The notes beneath the pieces are model-generated. The model made no database searches, was not told the origin of the DNA, and saw only the letters and a list, made by a program, of their open reading frames with translations. Position numbers and translations under genes: made by a program. From Candidatus Dadabacteria bacterium RIFCSPHIGHO2_12_FULL_53_21 (GTDB lineage: Bacteria > Desulfobacterota_D > UBA1144 > Nemesobacterales > UBA2774), in NCBI GenBank assembly GCA_001775255.1, contig MFCJ01000037.1:1-36847 (forward strand): DNA of 36,847 nt, written 5' to 3'. This document shows positions 7,980-13,349 of the stretch, one piece after another (the stretch's first letter is position 1; every line of letters starts with the position of its first letter).

Positions 7980-8276
7980 TGTAATATCACGGGGTTAAGC
8001 AGGGTCTTGGGATCCGATGTGTAATCACAAGAAAAAAGCCTGTTCAGACAGACTGGGATATTTCGAAACCTTAAATGCGTTCAATCGTATATTGATAGGA
8101 GAGGCCGGTACGAATATCATCGTTAGACCGATGGCGAAGGCTTTCGTGTTTAGTAGTGAGCCCGAAGATAACAGCAGTGCCCTCATGATGGATACGATCT
8201 ACGGCTTAGAAAGTACACCCCCGGAACGCAGTCGTGTATCCGGGGTAGAAACCCGAATCCTCACCGACACTCGAAT

Positions 8277-10130
8277 ATGACGCCTATAAGCGAAGACTAT
8301 CTGATCCCGATTGTTATAGGCGTGACCGGCCGGAAAGGTGATTCCCCCGACGAGGAGCGAGTCTCCGCTCTGGCCCTCCCGGAGATGGTCAGGCTCAGGA
8401 ATACGTTTCCCAACTCCCCGTTCGTCGTAATATCTTCTCTCTCCGGGGGTGACGAATGCCTGCTCGCGAGGCTCGCGATCGAGCACCTTCGCGCCAGGCT
8501 TATAGCGGTACTTCCCTGCCCGCCCGGGCAGTATAAAAACGGGCTCCCGGATGGTAAATACAGGGAAGATTTCTCGGAGCTTCTAGGACGGGCCGAGTCG
8601 TCGATAGATATCTCATCGCTGATGAGGTATAAACTCGGCGGGACAGGGTACGGTTGGGCTGAGGACCGGGCAATGACCGAGAGATTCACCGCGGCCTTTA
8701 TCGCTGAGCACAGCGAAATCCTCTTCGCCATTTCATCCGTTGACGGAAAGGAAGAGCAGGACACGACGGCACGGATAATCAAATGGATACGCGAAGGCAG
8801 GATTACGCGGGAATACTCGCTCAGGATGAATAAGTCCGGCCTCGATACAATGGACAGGAGCATGATAATCTCAATCGACCCTGTGACCCTCCGGACGAAG
8901 ACGGAATCCGTTCCGGCCGACCTAGATTCCGTTCCGGTAATTTCCGGCCCTAAGAATCAATACGGCTTTCCCGGCGCAATATATAGAGCCGCTTCCCGAA
9001 AACTTTCCGGTCTCGTTCAATCCGTGAGTCTCTTTCTCGATAAACTTTATGATTCCTTTTTTAATCGTCCCGGTGCAGATATTACGGATGGCTATGAAAA
9101 ATCGCCCTTCACTGGCATTATGGAGAGGATCGACGGCTTTAACTCCGACATCAGGAATTACTTTGACAAATACGGCGACAAAGACCTCGTAAAATCCAAA
9201 CAGTATCTGCTTCAAAACGAATCGGATAACGAGTTGATATCCGGGGATGGGGCGCTCCGTAAAATAATTTGTCTTTACTCCGCGTCGGACGTATTGTCGC
9301 AATTCTATCAAAAGAAGACAGCGGGCCTTATCAGCTGGATTTACGTCCTCTTCTTTATAGCCGTCGTGCTCTATGGTCTCATCGACTGGAGCTCTTACCT
9401 AGTCCTTTGTTATATAGGGCTCATCCCCGCCATTGCGCTGCTCGTAAAAAAGACCTCGAGGGACAGGATCGAGGACCGCTTCCTCGATTACAGGGGGCTT
9501 GCGGAGGGGCTCCGGGTCCAGTTCTTCTGGACGCTCTCCGGGATTGACGAGAACGTGTCCTCGCATTACCTGAGCAAGTACGAGGGCCTGCTCACGTGGA
9601 TAAGAAAAGCAGTGAGAAGTATCGAGATTGTGACGGTAAGAACGGGGATTGCGGAACACGTTCCGGCAAACAATACGTTCATGGATATTACCAGGAAGCT
9701 ATGGATAGAATCCCAGCTGGGTTATTTCGGTACCAAGAAAAGACCACTCCTGGCGAGGTCCCAGCAGTTCGGCAATATTATGTTCTTGTCCTTCGTATTA
9801 ACCCTTTTGGTCGCTCTCGTGTACGGCATGTATGTTTTGTTTGCCGGGGTGGGCAATAGCGAGGCGATAAATAATTTTCAGATCCTCCTGGGCGTGATTG
9901 CCGCCGTGGGCGTAGCCGCTCAGGCATATAAAAACAAAAGGGCATACGATGAGCTCGAAAGGAGGTACAGCCTCGCTCAGCAGACATATGCCTCGGCGAA
10001 GAGGGAGCTCGAGATTGGCAAAGTGCCTCCGGAGAGTATCCTCATCGCGGTCGGCAGGGAGGCCCTTCTCGAGAACAGCGACTGGCTATGGACCCACAGG
10101 AATGTCCCCATAGAGGTGCCCAAAGGTTAG
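8277..10130 (+). CDS. SLOG-like (DprA/LOG-type Rossmann) domain fused to two 2-TM SLATT-like membrane modules; paralog A with degenerate nucleotide-binding motifs
   Basis: 617-aa ORF. N-terminal domain (aa ~8-200, nt ~8298-8876): IVIGVTGRK, VISSLSGGDECLLARLAIEH, IAVLPCPPGQYKNGL and ILFAISSVDGKEEQDTTARII, collinear with paralog B. 2-TM module 1 (aa ~330-425, nt ~9264-9551) ends in RIEDRFLDYRGLAEGLRVQFFW. 2-TM module 2 (aa ~470-600) starts WIESQLGYFGTKKR, and its hairpin is followed by YDELERRYSLAQQTYASAKRELE. The domain names are my motif-level recognition, not a search result. Confidence 0.6.
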   Translation: MTPISEDYLIPIVIGVTGRKGDSPDEERVSALALPEMVRLRNTFPNSPFVVISSLSGGDECLLARLAIEHLRARLIAVLPCPPGQYKNGLPDGKYREDFSELLGRAESSIDISSLMRYKLGGTGYGWAEDRAMTERFTAAFIAEHSEILFAISSVDGKEEQDTTARIIKWIREGRITREYSLRMNKSGLDTMDRSMIISIDPVTLRTKTESVPADLDSVPVISGPKNQYGFPGAIYRAASRKLSGLVQSVSLFLDKLYDSFFNRPGADITDGYEKSPFTGIMERIDGFNSDIRNYFDKYGDKDLVKSKQYLLQNESDNELISGDGALRKIICLYSASDVLSQFYQKKTAGLISWIYVLFFIAVVLYGLIDWSSYLVLCYIGLIPAIALLVKKTSRDRIEDRFLDYRGLAEGLRVQFFWTLSGIDENVSSHYLSKYEGLLTWIRKAVRSIEIVTVRTGIAEHVPANNTFMDITRKLWIESQLGYFGTKKRPLLARSQQFGNIMFLSFVLTLLVALVYGMYVLFAGVGNSEAINNFQILLGVIAAVGVAAQAYKNKRAYDELERRYSLAQQTYASAKRELEIGKVPPESILIAVGREALLENSDWLWTHRNVPIEVPKG

Positions 10131-10136
10131 AACGTT

Positions 10137-11921
10137 ATGAACGCGATCAAGAAAGTTGAATCCCCCCCGAAAGCCCGTCTCGCGGTCAGGGTCGGCGTTA
10201 CCGGCCACCGTCTGAACGGCCTCGATAAGGCCGATATCGCCGCGCTCAGGATGCGGGTGAACGAAGTCCTGAAGCATATAAGCGGCGTTGCCGGCGAGGT
10301 GAAGTCGTCATTCGAATCTTTGTATTCCGACGGCGGGCCGCCTGTACTGAGGATAATATCTCCTCTCGCGGAAGGAGCGGACACGCTCGTCGCGGAGGCA
10401 GCGCTTGCAGAAGGATTCGAGCTCCAGTGCGCGCTCCCTTTCGGCCGCCAGGAATATGAAAAGGATTTTGCGGACGGCCTATCCCTCGGCAAGTACCGGA
10501 CGCTCCTGGGGACCGCTGCCTCGATACTGGAGCTCGACGGTTCGCGGGCGACGCCCGAGGTCGAGAACGAGTCTTATCAGACCGTAGGCCGGATGGTACT
10601 CGCCCAGAGCGATGTGCTTATTGCGGTATGGGACGGAGAGGACGCGAAAGGGAAGGGAGGCACGGGTCAGATCGTGAAGGAAGCGCTCATTAACGAAATC
10701 CCCGTGGTTTGGATAAACTCCGGTGCCCCGCACGACATAATGGTGCTCATGGGAGGAGAATATGAGGGGTTTAAAAAAGCGAGCCTCCGAGAGCTGGAAC
10801 TCAGACTAAAGAGGGTCCTTAAACCCGAACACCCGAAGAAACCCGACCTCAGCCGTACGTACTTTGATGAAAAACAACCGACCTGGACATGGGGTTTCAT
10901 ATTCGAAGCCTTCTGCGATATATTCGCGCGGGATAGGGTAGATACCGGGGGGGCAAGGGTCGGGGATTTCAACGAATCATCAGAAACGGAATGGCAGAAG
11001 GTTTGGGACTCGTGTCCTGATTTTCCGCAGTCCGTGAAGGATCAGATTAACGAAAAATTCCTCGCTCACTACGCATGGGCCGATAGGCTCGCCAATTATT
11101 ATTCGAATATCTACAGGAGTTCTTTCCTGGCTAACTACCTGATGGCCGCTTTGGCGGTCTTATTCGCACTTCTTCCGCCAATACCGGGGTTTGAAAACCT
11201 GTGGGTACTCTGCGAGCTCGCTTTGATTATCATGATAATAGCAATCACGGCAGTAGGGAACCTGAAGCATTGGCACGAGAGGTGGATAGATTATAGGCTT
11301 CTATCGGAACAGATAAGGCATCTCAGGTTTCTCGCGCCTCTCGGCCTCACCACCCCGGCGTTCAGGGTGCCGGCCCATGATACATACGGAGACCCCAGGA
11401 GCTCGTGGGTAAACTGGCATTTCAGGGGGATTGTCCGAGAAGCGGGAATGGTAGGAACGAGGATAGACAGAGAATACCTCACATCCTACAGGGATTTCCT
11501 CTCGAAGCAGGAAATATCCGCCCAGATAGATTATCATAAACGCAACTCACCCCGCTTCCACAGGATCCATCACAATCTCCATCTAATTGGCGGGGGACTC
11601 TTCGTCCTCACTCTTATCGCGTGTTTAGCCCATCTGTATGTTCACAACGACCTGCTGACCATTCTGGCGGCCATATTGCCTGCATTCGGCGCTGCGTTCT
11701 ACGGTATCCGGACCCATGGGGAATTCGAGCTGATAGCGAAGCGGTCGGATGCCATGAGCGCCCATCTGGAGAACCTCAGGAACGAGATCGAAAAGACCGA
11801 TTTTGTACCATCTTACAGGCTCCTCGGCCAAATCGCTGAAGATACGGCGGAGGTAATGTCATCGGAAACACTAGACTGGAGGATTGTTTTTCAATCCAAG
11901 CGTTTGGTGTTGCCTGGGTAG
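10137..11921 (+). CDS. SLOG-like domain fused to two 2-TM SLATT-like membrane modules; paralog B with intact glycine-rich motifs
   Basis: 594-aa ORF starting 6 nt after paralog A. SLOG-like domain (aa ~14-205, nt ~10176-10751): VRVGVTGHR, IISPLAEGADTLVAEAALAEG, CALPFGRQEYEKDF and LIAVWDGEDAKGKGGTGQIV. The motif order parallels DprA (xVGTR / SGxAxGID..AH / AVLxxGxDxxYP). Module 1 (aa ~305-400): YYSNIYR, two TM helices, then HWHERWIDYRLLSEQIRHLRFL, resembling the DUF4231/SLATT W..YR..aE.L motif. Module 2 (aa ~450-590): QIDYHKRN, two TM helices, then AKRSDAMSAHLENLRNEIE. Confidence 0.65.
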   Translation: MNAIKKVESPPKARLAVRVGVTGHRLNGLDKADIAALRMRVNEVLKHISGVAGEVKSSFESLYSDGGPPVLRIISPLAEGADTLVAEAALAEGFELQCALPFGRQEYEKDFADGLSLGKYRTLLGTAASILELDGSRATPEVENESYQTVGRMVLAQSDVLIAVWDGEDAKGKGGTGQIVKEALINEIPVVWINSGAPHDIMVLMGGEYEGFKKASLRELELRLKRVLKPEHPKKPDLSRTYFDEKQPTWTWGFIFEAFCDIFARDRVDTGGARVGDFNESSETEWQKVWDSCPDFPQSVKDQINEKFLAHYAWADRLANYYSNIYRSSFLANYLMAALAVLFALLPPIPGFENLWVLCELALIIMIIAITAVGNLKHWHERWIDYRLLSEQIRHLRFLAPLGLTTPAFRVPAHDTYGDPRSSWVNWHFRGIVREAGMVGTRIDREYLTSYRDFLSKQEISAQIDYHKRNSPRFHRIHHNLHLIGGGLFVLTLIACLAHLYVHNDLLTILAAILPAFGAAFYGIRTHGEFELIAKRSDAMSAHLENLRNEIEKTDFVPSYRLLGQIAEDTAEVMSSETLDWRIVFQSKRLVLPG

Positions 11922-11975: not shown

Positions 11976-13349
11976 ATGGCTCACGATGTTTTTATCAGTC
12001 ACTCCGGAAAAGACAAACCCATAGCCGACGCCGTGTGCGCGACACTGGAAATCGGCGGCGTAAGGTGCTGGATCGCGCCGAGAGACATAGTGCCCGGCAC
12101 ACAGTGGGGCGAGGCGATTATAGATGCCATAAGCTCGAGCCGGGTCATGGTGCTCGTTTTCTCTTCCAATGCCAATGAATCCCAGCAGATCATCAGGGAA
12201 GTAGAACGCGCGGTCAGCAAGGGCATACCCGTTATCCCTTTCAGGGTCGAAGACGTCGACCCCAATAAATCCCTCGAATATTTCATAAGCGCACCGCACT
12301 GGCTCGATGCCTTGACCCCGCCCCTCGAAAAGCACCTGGAACAGCTTCTGTCCACAATAAAGCTGCTGCTCTCAAGACAAGGGGCGCGCACAGAACCTCC
12401 TTCCGACGGAGATACCGCGCGAGCAAGCGGAGCCACTCCATCCGGGCCCGAAAGGGCCGGTCGGGAGTCGGATACGCGCATTGAAACCATCAGGCCGCTC
12501 GAAAAGAAGGATTATTCCGGCGGAAAGTCTTTCCTCGAGGATAAAAAGAAGCTCGGCGGTCTAATAGCCCTAGTCCTGGTTTTAGGATTGGCCGGGTATC
12601 TGATTTTCGGCGGCGGTGACGACGGCAATGATGGGACGAACAATAATCAGAACCAGATCATACCGGGCCCGTCCAATCATTATCAGCCTCCCGTATATAC
12701 CCCGTCCCCTCCCGGTCCGTACGATAACGAAGGGAACTGGGGGGCTATAGCGATTGCGCCAAGCGGGGGCTGGGGTTTTTCCTCGAACATGTCCTCGAAA
12801 CAGGCGGCCGAGAAGGACGCTGTTGAAAGGTGCAGTCAATTCAATACGGGGTGCGAGGTCAGAATCTCGTTCAATACCTGTGCTGTCTATGCCACGGCCC
12901 CGGACGGGTCATACGGTTGGGCGACAAATACTACCGTCGATCTGGCGAGAAATAACGCGGTAAGCGAATGTCACAAGTATACGAATGATCTGTGCTCCTC
13001 GTTCATCGAATTGTGCGCCGACGGGAGCGTTAAGAGTGTCAATGAATGGGCTGCGATAGCGACTGCCGACAATGGGCAATACGGCGCCGCATGGAACTAT
13101 CCCACGCGGGTCCAGGCGGAAAAAGCGTCGGTCGATGAGTGTGCGAAGTACGGGCCCAACTGTCAGATGAGGATTTCGTTCACCGACTGCGGTGCTATAG
13201 CGAGGAGTGAGGACGGAGCTATCGGATGGGGCTATTATGCGGACATGAGCCAGGCGGTCAAGGCTGCGATGGATGAGTGCGACAACCGGGGCGAAAAACC
13301 CTGCAGCATCCTCACCCAGCTCTGCGCCGACGGGAGCGAGAGGAAATAA
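11976..13349 (+). CDS. TIR-domain protein with a single TM anchor and two extracytoplasmic DUF4189-like six-cysteine repeats
   Basis: 457-aa ORF. TIR (aa ~3-130, nt ~11982-12365): DVFISHSGKDK..., RVMVLVFSSNANESQQIIREVERAV (candidate catalytic Glu75, nt 12198-12200) and PHWLDA. An acidic/Pro-rich linker follows. TM helix LGGLIALVLVLGLAGYLIF (nt ~12552-12608). Repeat 1 is aa ~255-349 and repeat 2 is aa ~358-453; each starts W(G/A)AIA and each has 6 Cys with identical spacing (7-9-30-8-7). Confidence 0.75.
   Translation: MAHDVFISHSGKDKPIADAVCATLEIGGVRCWIAPRDIVPGTQWGEAIIDAISSSRVMVLVFSSNANESQQIIREVERAVSKGIPVIPFRVEDVDPNKSLEYFISAPHWLDALTPPLEKHLEQLLSTIKLLLSRQGARTEPPSDGDTARASGATPSGPERAGRESDTRIETIRPLEKKDYSGGKSFLEDKKKLGGLIALVLVLGLAGYLIFGGGDDGNDGTNNNQNQIIPGPSNHYQPPVYTPSPPGPYDNEGNWGAIAIAPSGGWGFSSNMSSKQAAEKDAVERCSQFNTGCEVRISFNTCAVYATAPDGSYGWATNTTVDLARNNAVSECHKYTNDLCSSFIELCADGSVKSVNEWAAIATADNGQYGAAWNYPTRVQAEKASVDECAKYGPNCQMRISFTDCGAIARSEDGAIGWGYYADMSQAVKAAMDECDNRGEKPCSILTQLCADGSERK

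Follow-up and report, generated by a model that had tools for sequence, protein, structure and literature searches.

A degenerate SLOG-SLATT protein encoded beside an intact paralogue in a candidate TIR signalling cassette of Dadabacteria

Why should two related proteins, one with an apparently intact sensor domain and one with a degenerate sensor domain, be encoded side by side? The question arises at positions 8,277 to 11,921 of a 36,847-nucleotide stretch of DNA (the window) from Candidatus Dadabacteria bacterium RIFCSPHIGHO2_12_FULL_53_21 (contig MFCJ01000037.1), where two genes that we call A and B precede a gene for a TIR-domain protein. The names of homologues, too, assign this genome to Candidatus Dadabacteria / Thermodesulfobacteriota. 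Each of the two genes encodes a SLOG-fold domain joined to membrane modules of the SLATT clan. We propose that A and B belong with the downstream TIR gene to a single Thoeris-like cassette in which a signal passes from TIR to SLOG to SLATT, and that A is a mostly ligand-blind partner of B; we give this reading a probability of about 0.55. All three genes lie on the same strand, the TAG stop of A and the ATG of B are 6 nt apart, and no terminator-like site above chance was found between the cassette genes.

8277..10130, plus strand: open reading frame (ORF) A from the ORF list, 617 amino acids (aa), of the subfamily II lineage described below; a degenerate SLOG-fold domain, a linker and two SLATT-clan modules, each of two transmembrane helices (2-TM)
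10137..11921, plus strand: ORF B, 594 aa, of subfamily I; an intact SLOG-fold domain, a linker and DUF4231 and SLATT_1 modules
11976..13349, plus strand: third gene of the cassette, 457 aa; a TIR domain (residues 1-124), one TM helix (193-211) and two DUF4189 domains (Pfam, TM prediction)

The preliminary description of this DNA, made by eye, held that A and B are collinear over their full length and carry near-identical membrane modules. The first of these statements is borne out by a formal comparison of profiles: hhalign placed 19 A orthologues against 26 B relatives from many phyla in a single collinear alignment that ran end to end over 540 columns (probability 99.2%, E 8.8e-20, 18% identity), and on these profiles the homology of A and B is certain, far beyond chance. 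The second has to be given up because BLASTP joins A and B in only two collinear pieces of 23-24% identity (E 0.003 and 0.009); at 18-24% identity the modules match at profile level alone.

The same alignment pairs GVTGHR of B with GVTGRK of A, AEGAD with SGGDE, and GKGGTG with EQDTTA. These are the positions that had been matched by eye, and the contrast drawn there between a B protein that keeps its motifs and an A protein whose counterparts are altered and whose glycine-rich loop is lost holds across the orthologues. In the 26 B relatives G20, G23, H24, R25, A78, E79, G80, D82, G174, G175 and T176 are invariant. The aligned sites vary among the 19 A orthologues, with G15 as the sole invariant residue; an acidic residue (E or D) facing D82 of B is retained in 18 of the 19. 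The A protein of the window is a mild case, retaining GVTG, G58, E60 and T164. At the position of the GGTG loop its two glycines are replaced by D162 and T163, and the predicted local distance difference test score (pLDDT) of its AlphaFold2 (AF2) model falls below 50 at residues 156-160. In the A orthologues of the sister genus nearly all of the motif residues have gone. The most divergent A orthologues, P0158 and P0159, are missing about 50 residues of the N-terminal domain, in the region of strands 3-4, and their membrane half is almost unchanged; this shortening suggests that erosion of the sensor domain is ongoing.

8277..8915, plus strand: N-terminal SLOG-fold domain of A, residues ~1-213, with its ligand motifs mostly lost (AF2 and Foldseek)
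8319..8336, plus strand: GVTGRK of A, residues 15-20, paired with GVTGHR of B (alignment of A orthologues, hhalign)
8442..8456, plus strand: SGGDE of A, residues 56-60, paired with AEGAD of B; the equivalent of E79 is gone (alignment of A orthologues, hhalign)
8742..8771, plus strand: DGKEEQDTTA of A, residues 156-165, of which EQDTTA pairs with GKGGTG of B (alignment of A orthologues, hhalign, AF2)
10137..10781, plus strand: N-terminal SLOG-fold domain of B, residues ~1-215 (Foldseek matches to DprA; weak Pfam matches in relatives)
10194..10211, plus strand: GVTGHR of B, residues 20-25, at the end of strand 1 (B-family alignment, AF2)
10368..10382, plus strand: AEGAD of B, residues 78-82, in the loop after strand 2 (B-family alignment, AF2)
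10650..10667, plus strand: GKGGTG of B, residues 172-177, in the loop after strand 5 (B-family alignment, AF2)

Are these domains SLOG folds at all, as had been supposed? We consider that both are, because Foldseek finds domain-level matches for them in the SMF/DprA-LOG superfamily and some of their relatives match SLOG families weakly in Pfam. The AF2 model of B (pLDDT 89.2, predicted template modelling score 0.89) has an N-terminal domain of alternating strands and helices, and its sole domain-level matches in the PDB are DprA structures (5mll, 4ljl, 4ljr and 3uqz; probability 1.00, template modelling score TMt 0.37-0.50, about 190 columns). The model of A has a pLDDT of 69.7 overall and of 82-94 over residues 1-120, which show the alternating beta/alpha pattern. 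It matched DprA 3uqz and the LOG-type structure 1rcu with probability 1.0, Moco carrier protein with 0.99 and the SLOG domain of ThsA with 0.66-0.72 (structures 7uxs, probability 0.66, and 6lhx); its top domains (DprA, TM1055, Moco carrier protein, YvdD and the ThsA SLOG domain with 3' cyclic ADP-ribose, 3'cADPR) all belong to that superfamily. Among 23 relatives scanned in Pfam, DNA_processg_A was matched weakly by four (best E 4.7e-4) and YAcAr by three (best 0.02); both are SLOG families. No curated SLOG sequence model in Pfam or NCBIfam matched the N-terminal domain of A or B themselves, and a sequence-profile search of the PDB returned noise only. As far as the predicted structure can tell, A has kept the SLOG fold and lost the motifs.

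In the AF2 model of B the motifs follow strands 1, 2 and 5, at the C-terminal end of each. In folds of the Rossmann type the ligand crevice usually lies at such strand ends. In BcThsA we take G289/S290 and G399/E403 to be glycine-rich loops of the SLOG fold. The residues of the 3'cADPR pocket in that protein include these four (10.1101/2022.05.07.491051). From the secondary structure of the model and the pocket of ThsA we infer that the B motifs lie at the ligand pocket.

The membrane halves of the two proteins are built alike. Hydropathy predicts four TM helices in A and four in B, arranged as two hairpins with outer loops of 3-8 residues and with inner flanks that are rich in K/R, a positive-inside pattern of charge; long helices are visible in both AF2 models. 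A DW tail is common to the two proteins and W603 is invariant across both subfamilies. B matches DUF4231 in Pfam (residues 312-398, 31.4 bits against a cut-off of 24.7), falls slightly below the cut-off of 26.3 for Pfam SLATT_1 (residues 460-581, 24.1 bits) and passes SLATT_1 of NCBIfam, which matches two stretches (64 bits, cut-off 41). A scores below the cut-offs of SLATT-clan models (15.8 and 20.8 bits), and its link to SLATT runs through B, module by module: hhalign pairs the first modules with a probability of 95.7% and the second modules with 89.9%. The preliminary description was right to see two 2-TM units in each polypeptide; the layout that it set apart from typical SLATT proteins is the norm across this family, and DUF4231 is matched by 19 of the 23 relatives scanned singly. 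Internal duplication was considered as the origin of the two units and rejected: compared as profiles, module 1 and module 2 are not similar in A or in B (0.1%), so any common origin must be very old. How SLATT proteins are activated has been termed an open question (10.64898/2026.04.29.721553).

9240..9551, plus strand: 2-TM module 1 of A, residues ~322-425, TM helices ~351-369 and 372-390, with the RFLDYRGLAEGLRV signature (hydropathy, hhalign, sub-threshold DUF4231)
9663..10112, plus strand: 2-TM module 2 of A, residues ~463-612, TM helices ~503-521 and 530-548, with the ENSDW tail (hydropathy, hhalign, sub-threshold SLATT_1)
11022..11351, plus strand: 2-TM module 1 of B, DUF4231, TM helices ~331-349 and 355-373, with the RWIDYRLL signature (Pfam, hydropathy)
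11463..11906, plus strand: 2-TM module 2 of B, SLATT_1, TM helices ~484-502 and 506-524, with the ETLDW tail (Pfam, NCBIfam, hydropathy)

What, then, would signal to such proteins? The third gene of the cassette matches TIR_2 (1.7e-22) and DUF4189 (2.4e-39) in Pfam and is syntenic with A and B at all orthologous loci. Relatives of B occur in at least 544 species in a scan of a genome collection, and we examined the neighbourhoods of the best 79 B loci, 77 of which were scored for a TIR ORF within 8 kb: one was present in 43 of the 77. Three distant B relatives that were looked up singly all lie beside a TIR gene, coding for TIR-AAA in Aromatoleum, TIR-NACHT in Phosphitispora and plain TIR in Terracidiphilus. 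The B family is thus a large and old family of proteins of about 600 aa, combining a SLOG fold with DUF4231 and SLATT_1, that is found recurrently beside TIR genes in many phyla.

The TIR clade of the window itself extends beyond Dadabacteria, to 14 loci in Alphaproteobacteria, Acidobacteriota, Planctomycetota, Verrucomicrobiota, Methylococcales, Gemmatimonadota and Aromatoleum, with 40-70% identity over 119-140 residues. E75 is invariant in the 23 TIR sequences of the clade; presumably it is the catalytic glutamate of known TIR NADases. The fusion partners of the TIR domain differ by lineage (DUF4189 ectodomain, STAND ATPase, TPR, SH3) and the effector is constant, a pattern in the sequences that would fit a variable sensor with a constant output. 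The TIR of the window (11976-12395) is 60-70% identical to the TIRs of loci L061, L078, L080, L083, L094, L100, L107, L109 and L112, so that it is more conserved across phyla than is B (34-45%), an unusual feature in a TIR domain from a conflict system.

The partnership of A with B has a much narrower distribution. Of the best 79 B loci, 8, all from Dadabacteria, have a true A gene upstream of B, the sequence of a ninth Dadabacteria locus starts at B, and no A-like or subfamily II gene was found within 8 kb of B in the remaining loci, outside Dadabacteria. Within the same genus 8 of 9 genomes have A and B adjacent, as do 3 of 3 in the sister genus, and the trio of A, B and TIR gene is found at a single chromosomal site in 11 of the 12 genomes that make up the two genera here; the other 20 genomes searched in the family have neither A nor B. 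Wherever the flanks suffice the order is a DUF3568 gene, A, B, the TIR-DUF4189 gene and a DUF3108 gene, with RNR and a transporter gene nearby, and this constancy leads us to regard the cassette as a fixed, vertically inherited chromosomal locus. A was found only next to B, and no A orthologue turned up outside Dadabacteria. The preliminary description had asked whether orthologous loci carry both copies: they do so in the two Dadabacteria genera, where the copies are always adjacent, and across the B family at large one copy is usual.

Two side observations concern the neighbours of these genes. An 87-codon ORF at 8017-8280 of the window overlaps the start of A through ATGA and sits in the 495-nt spacer upstream of A. 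In many Acidobacteriota and in Phosphitispora, B is adjoined by a protein of 600-730 aa that has TM helices at its N terminus and a Rossmann domain of the TrkA_N type, sometimes with RyR as well (L030:6172-7965, L031:9820-11853 and 30 of the 77 B loci, among L034-L112); the TIR protein of L061 has the N-terminal TM region typical of these TrkA_N neighbours. The TrkA_N/RyR neighbours of 597-677 aa in other phyla were considered as counterparts of A and set aside, being not homologous to A.

How did A come to stand beside B? The relatives of A in databases fall into two tiers, one of about 39 orthologues with 42-91% identity and one consisting of a broad group of proteins of 550-720 aa with 22-29% identity. 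Members of the second tier retain GVTGHR, LAEGAD and WDG...GGT, and they share with A the signatures RYLDYRxLAEGLRVQxFW and EALxENxDWxxxHRxRPxE of the membrane half. In a maximum-likelihood tree the B family (subfamily I) forms one clade with support of 100/100. The A orthologues form a clade on a long stem of 1.0 changes per site that is nested in subfamily II, and the sisters of this clade (P0161, P0162, P0163 and P0179) have intact motifs (100/98). The tree rules out a recent tandem duplication giving A and B, with A in subfamily II and B in subfamily I: A and B are old paralogues that were brought together and not local duplicates. Since the other members of subfamily II keep their motifs, the loss in A is derived and falls on its stem in Dadabacteria, where conservation has been lost at the His-Arg of strand 1, the Glu of AEGAD and the GGT loop. 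Of 3 subfamily II contexts that were looked up, 2 have a TIR gene adjacent. In another family of the same order a single subfamily II gene is found with intact GVTGHR, PLAEGAD and GGT (L026:1309-3084 and L027:8249-10036), and at L027 there is a TIR-like match about 2 kb upstream of it.

Selection has treated the two halves of A differently. We estimated the ratio of nonsynonymous to synonymous substitution (dN/dS) from the closest genome pairs (dS 0.35-0.5) and obtained 0.30-0.36 for the N-terminal half of A and about 0.10 for its membrane half, the most constrained of the four segments; the corresponding figures for B are 0.17-0.22 and 0.11-0.13. The sensor half of A is about 3-fold more relaxed than its membrane half and is still constrained. 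On this pattern A is a functional gene that works mainly through its membrane part. Together with the behaviour of the motifs across orthologues, the relaxation upholds the original suggestion of one competent and one degenerate copy. It is hardly credible that A is a decaying gene with no function: its N-terminal half does evolve fast, P0158 and P0159 have been shortened and one genome has a split A frame, but the full-length ORF has been kept in two genera down to 42% identity, more than 100 columns of its C-terminal half are invariant, and pseudogene decay is brought close to refutation by dN/dS values (about 0.10 and about 0.3) that are both well below 1. The split frame occurs at L023 / L037 (genome G076, of the same genus), where A is broken near codon 72-76 into two pieces in different frames beside an undamaged B and TIR gene; an indel of the long-read assembly or a real frameshift could account for the break.

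These observations suggest a mechanism for the cassette. The membrane TIR protein would be triggered, probably through its outward-facing DUF4189 domains, and, by the precedents of Thoeris, would convert NAD+ to a messenger derived from ADP-ribose that would be bound in the SLOG pocket of B. Binding of this ligand would cause the four-helix SLATT region of B to oligomerise or to open, permeabilising the inner membrane. A may co-assemble with B as a non-sensing subunit that is structural or sets the threshold of the response; this last step is the weakest of the series.

Several points weigh against this reading. The cassette is fixed among housekeeping genes in two genera and is not distributed patchily in defence islands, which is unusual for an anti-phage system, and PADLOC has no model matching A or B. 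In every other lineage sampled B is without an A-type partner, so the basic mechanism can do without A. Contact between A and B is putative, as are the ligand, the pore activity and the phenotype of this family. A SLATT protein may sense a ligand without a SLOG pocket, to judge from the AlphaFold 3 model of ThsH, in which there are pockets between the protomers (10.64898/2025.12.03.692087). The SLOG domain of A may itself have residual ligand binding, given that GVTG, G58, the acidic residue facing D82 and T164 are retained in the genus of the window.

The closest precedents are the Thoeris systems. Type I Thoeris, consisting of the TIR protein ThsB and the SIR2-SLOG protein ThsA, resembles the Dadabacteria locus in having a TIR gene beside an effector whose SLOG domain is the expected receptor of a cyclic ADP-ribose (cADPR) isomer. 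It differs in its output, ThsA being a SIR2 NADase whereas A and B have a four-helix membrane module of the SLATT clan; in its SLOG domain, since those of A and B are nearer to the DprA/YspA-like type than to the ThsA type (STALD) and no Pfam match to STALD was found; in its TIR protein, which in the window is membrane-anchored with an outward-facing ectodomain; and in its number of effectors, of which there are two paralogues here, one of them degenerate. Type VII Thoeris pairs a ThsB TIR with the SLATT effector ThsH and uses canonical cADPR as its signal (10.64898/2025.12.03.692087). It shares with our locus the combination of TIR with a SLATT membrane effector that is thought to oligomerise upon ligand binding; compared by description, ThsH is labelled SLATT only, whereas A and B add an N-terminal SLOG domain and have two different SLATT-clan units.

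A candidate Thoeris class named 'SLOG and 4TM' has also been described, two representatives of which gave no defence in E. coli (10.64898/2025.12.03.692087, Tables S1 and S2). By its label it resembles the B loci, with a TIR beside a SLOG domain fused to four TM helices, and we considered whether the B family is this class. We located the tested TIR of Nitrospira nitrosa at 100% identity and took as its presumed partner the same-strand ORF directly upstream, of 359 aa, in which a LOG-like N-terminal motif and hydrophobic C-terminal segments can be read by eye. This ORF matched none of the profiles of subfamily I, subfamily II and A at E <= 1e-3 and had no match to DUF4231 or SLATT in Pfam, so it belongs to a different family from B, and identity of the B family with the class is rejected for the N. 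nitrosa representative, whose presumed partner is unrelated. Upstream of the SLOG-4TM and TIR genes of N. nitrosa (L118:9760-11736) there is a 657-aa TPR-S protein with a C-terminal SLOG-like LWDGGGGDGPGGT motif like that of the A/B family.

Known associations of SLOG with SLATT (Pfam SLATT_1-6 and DUF4231) are a further likeness: the SLATT name records the link to SLOG, and B passes DUF4231 and the SLATT_1 model of NCBIfam. We found in the literature no account of paired proteins of which one has an intact sensor and the other a degenerate one, Burroughs et al. 2015 lying outside that comparison. The logic of TIR, SLOG and SLATT acting in series is a prediction of the Aravind group (PMC9503650). 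It has been validated in parts, by the SLOG sensor of type I Thoeris and by the SLATT effector of type VII (10.64898/2025.12.03.692087).

What else could A be doing? A stronger form of the same idea is that A and B make an obligate mixed pore, gated by ligand, in which only B binds the nucleotide made by TIR, and that the cassette, fixed in the chromosome and driven by a receptor-like TIR protein whose ectodomain faces outward, serves signalling at the envelope or between cells and not classic abortive-infection defence. We regard this as a tentative possibility with the odds against it; if true, the mixed pore would give bacteria an analogue of those heteromeric channels that contain non-binding subunits.

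It is rather unlikely that A acts as a second effector in its own right, answering to the same TIR signal, forming its own homo-oligomer and gated by some other cue or by ligand pockets that the cytoplasmic parts of SLATT protomers make between them. The pockets in the model of the SLATT-only ThsH are positively charged, and rare TIR operons with two different effectors have been reported (both 10.64898/2025.12.03.692087); the SLATT half of A is the best conserved part of either protein, and its ancestry is in a subfamily that works alone beside TIR genes. However, A never occurs without B, being adjacent to it in 11 of 11 Dadabacteria genomes with no orthologue found elsewhere, the motif-intact relatives of A evidently use their SLOG domain, and the motifs have been lost only where a motif-intact B adjoins.

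Also unlikely, and a little more so, is that A is a negative regulator or decoy, which caps or dilutes B oligomers, keeps the pore closed at anything short of a strong signal and so allows a lethal effector to stay permanently in the chromosome. It would account for the asymmetric loss of motifs, for the strict order of A then B with the 6-nt spacing that suggests a fixed stoichiometry, and for inheritance of the trio that is unusually stable across two genera. Against it, other lineages retain members of the B family with no partner of this kind. The proposal amounts to a version of the hetero-oligomer model in which A acts in the opposite direction, and sequence data do not separate inhibition from co-activation.

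Improbable, in our view, is a third proposal, in which B has an enzymatic SLOG domain that would process or degrade what the TIR makes, in the manner of LOG-type N-glycosidases, and A is a catalytically dead paralogue. Being polar, the invariant H24, R25, E79 and D82 could serve in catalysis, SLOG clades comprise both enzymes and sensors according to the Aravind group (PMC9503650), and the model of A matches LOG-type structures too. Yet the nearest structural and Pfam matches, DprA and YspA-like proteins, are binding proteins, and fusion to a membrane effector suits a sensor better. The LOG motif is PGGxGTxxE, and B has GGTGQIVKE, with no glutamate at the spacing of that motif.

The cassette reading, in which A is a mostly ligand-blind partner of B, has consequences at two levels. 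For Dadabacteria, where alone it was seen, the new element is a degenerate subunit, a putative partner by its sequence, beside the intact-sensor B. The pair of intact and dead sensors would offer a natural, built-in control for asking what number of subunits in a SLATT assembly must bind ligand and whether SLOG is the receptor, and A would show that signalling effectors can evolve pseudo-sensor subunits, as happens with pseudoenzymes. For the family at large, a conserved TIR clade that travels with a B-type effector across more than ten phyla points to a common, uncharacterised TIR signalling module, and the SLOG and double-SLATT proteins of about 600 aa, known here from their sequences, may bear on how SLATT effectors are switched on.

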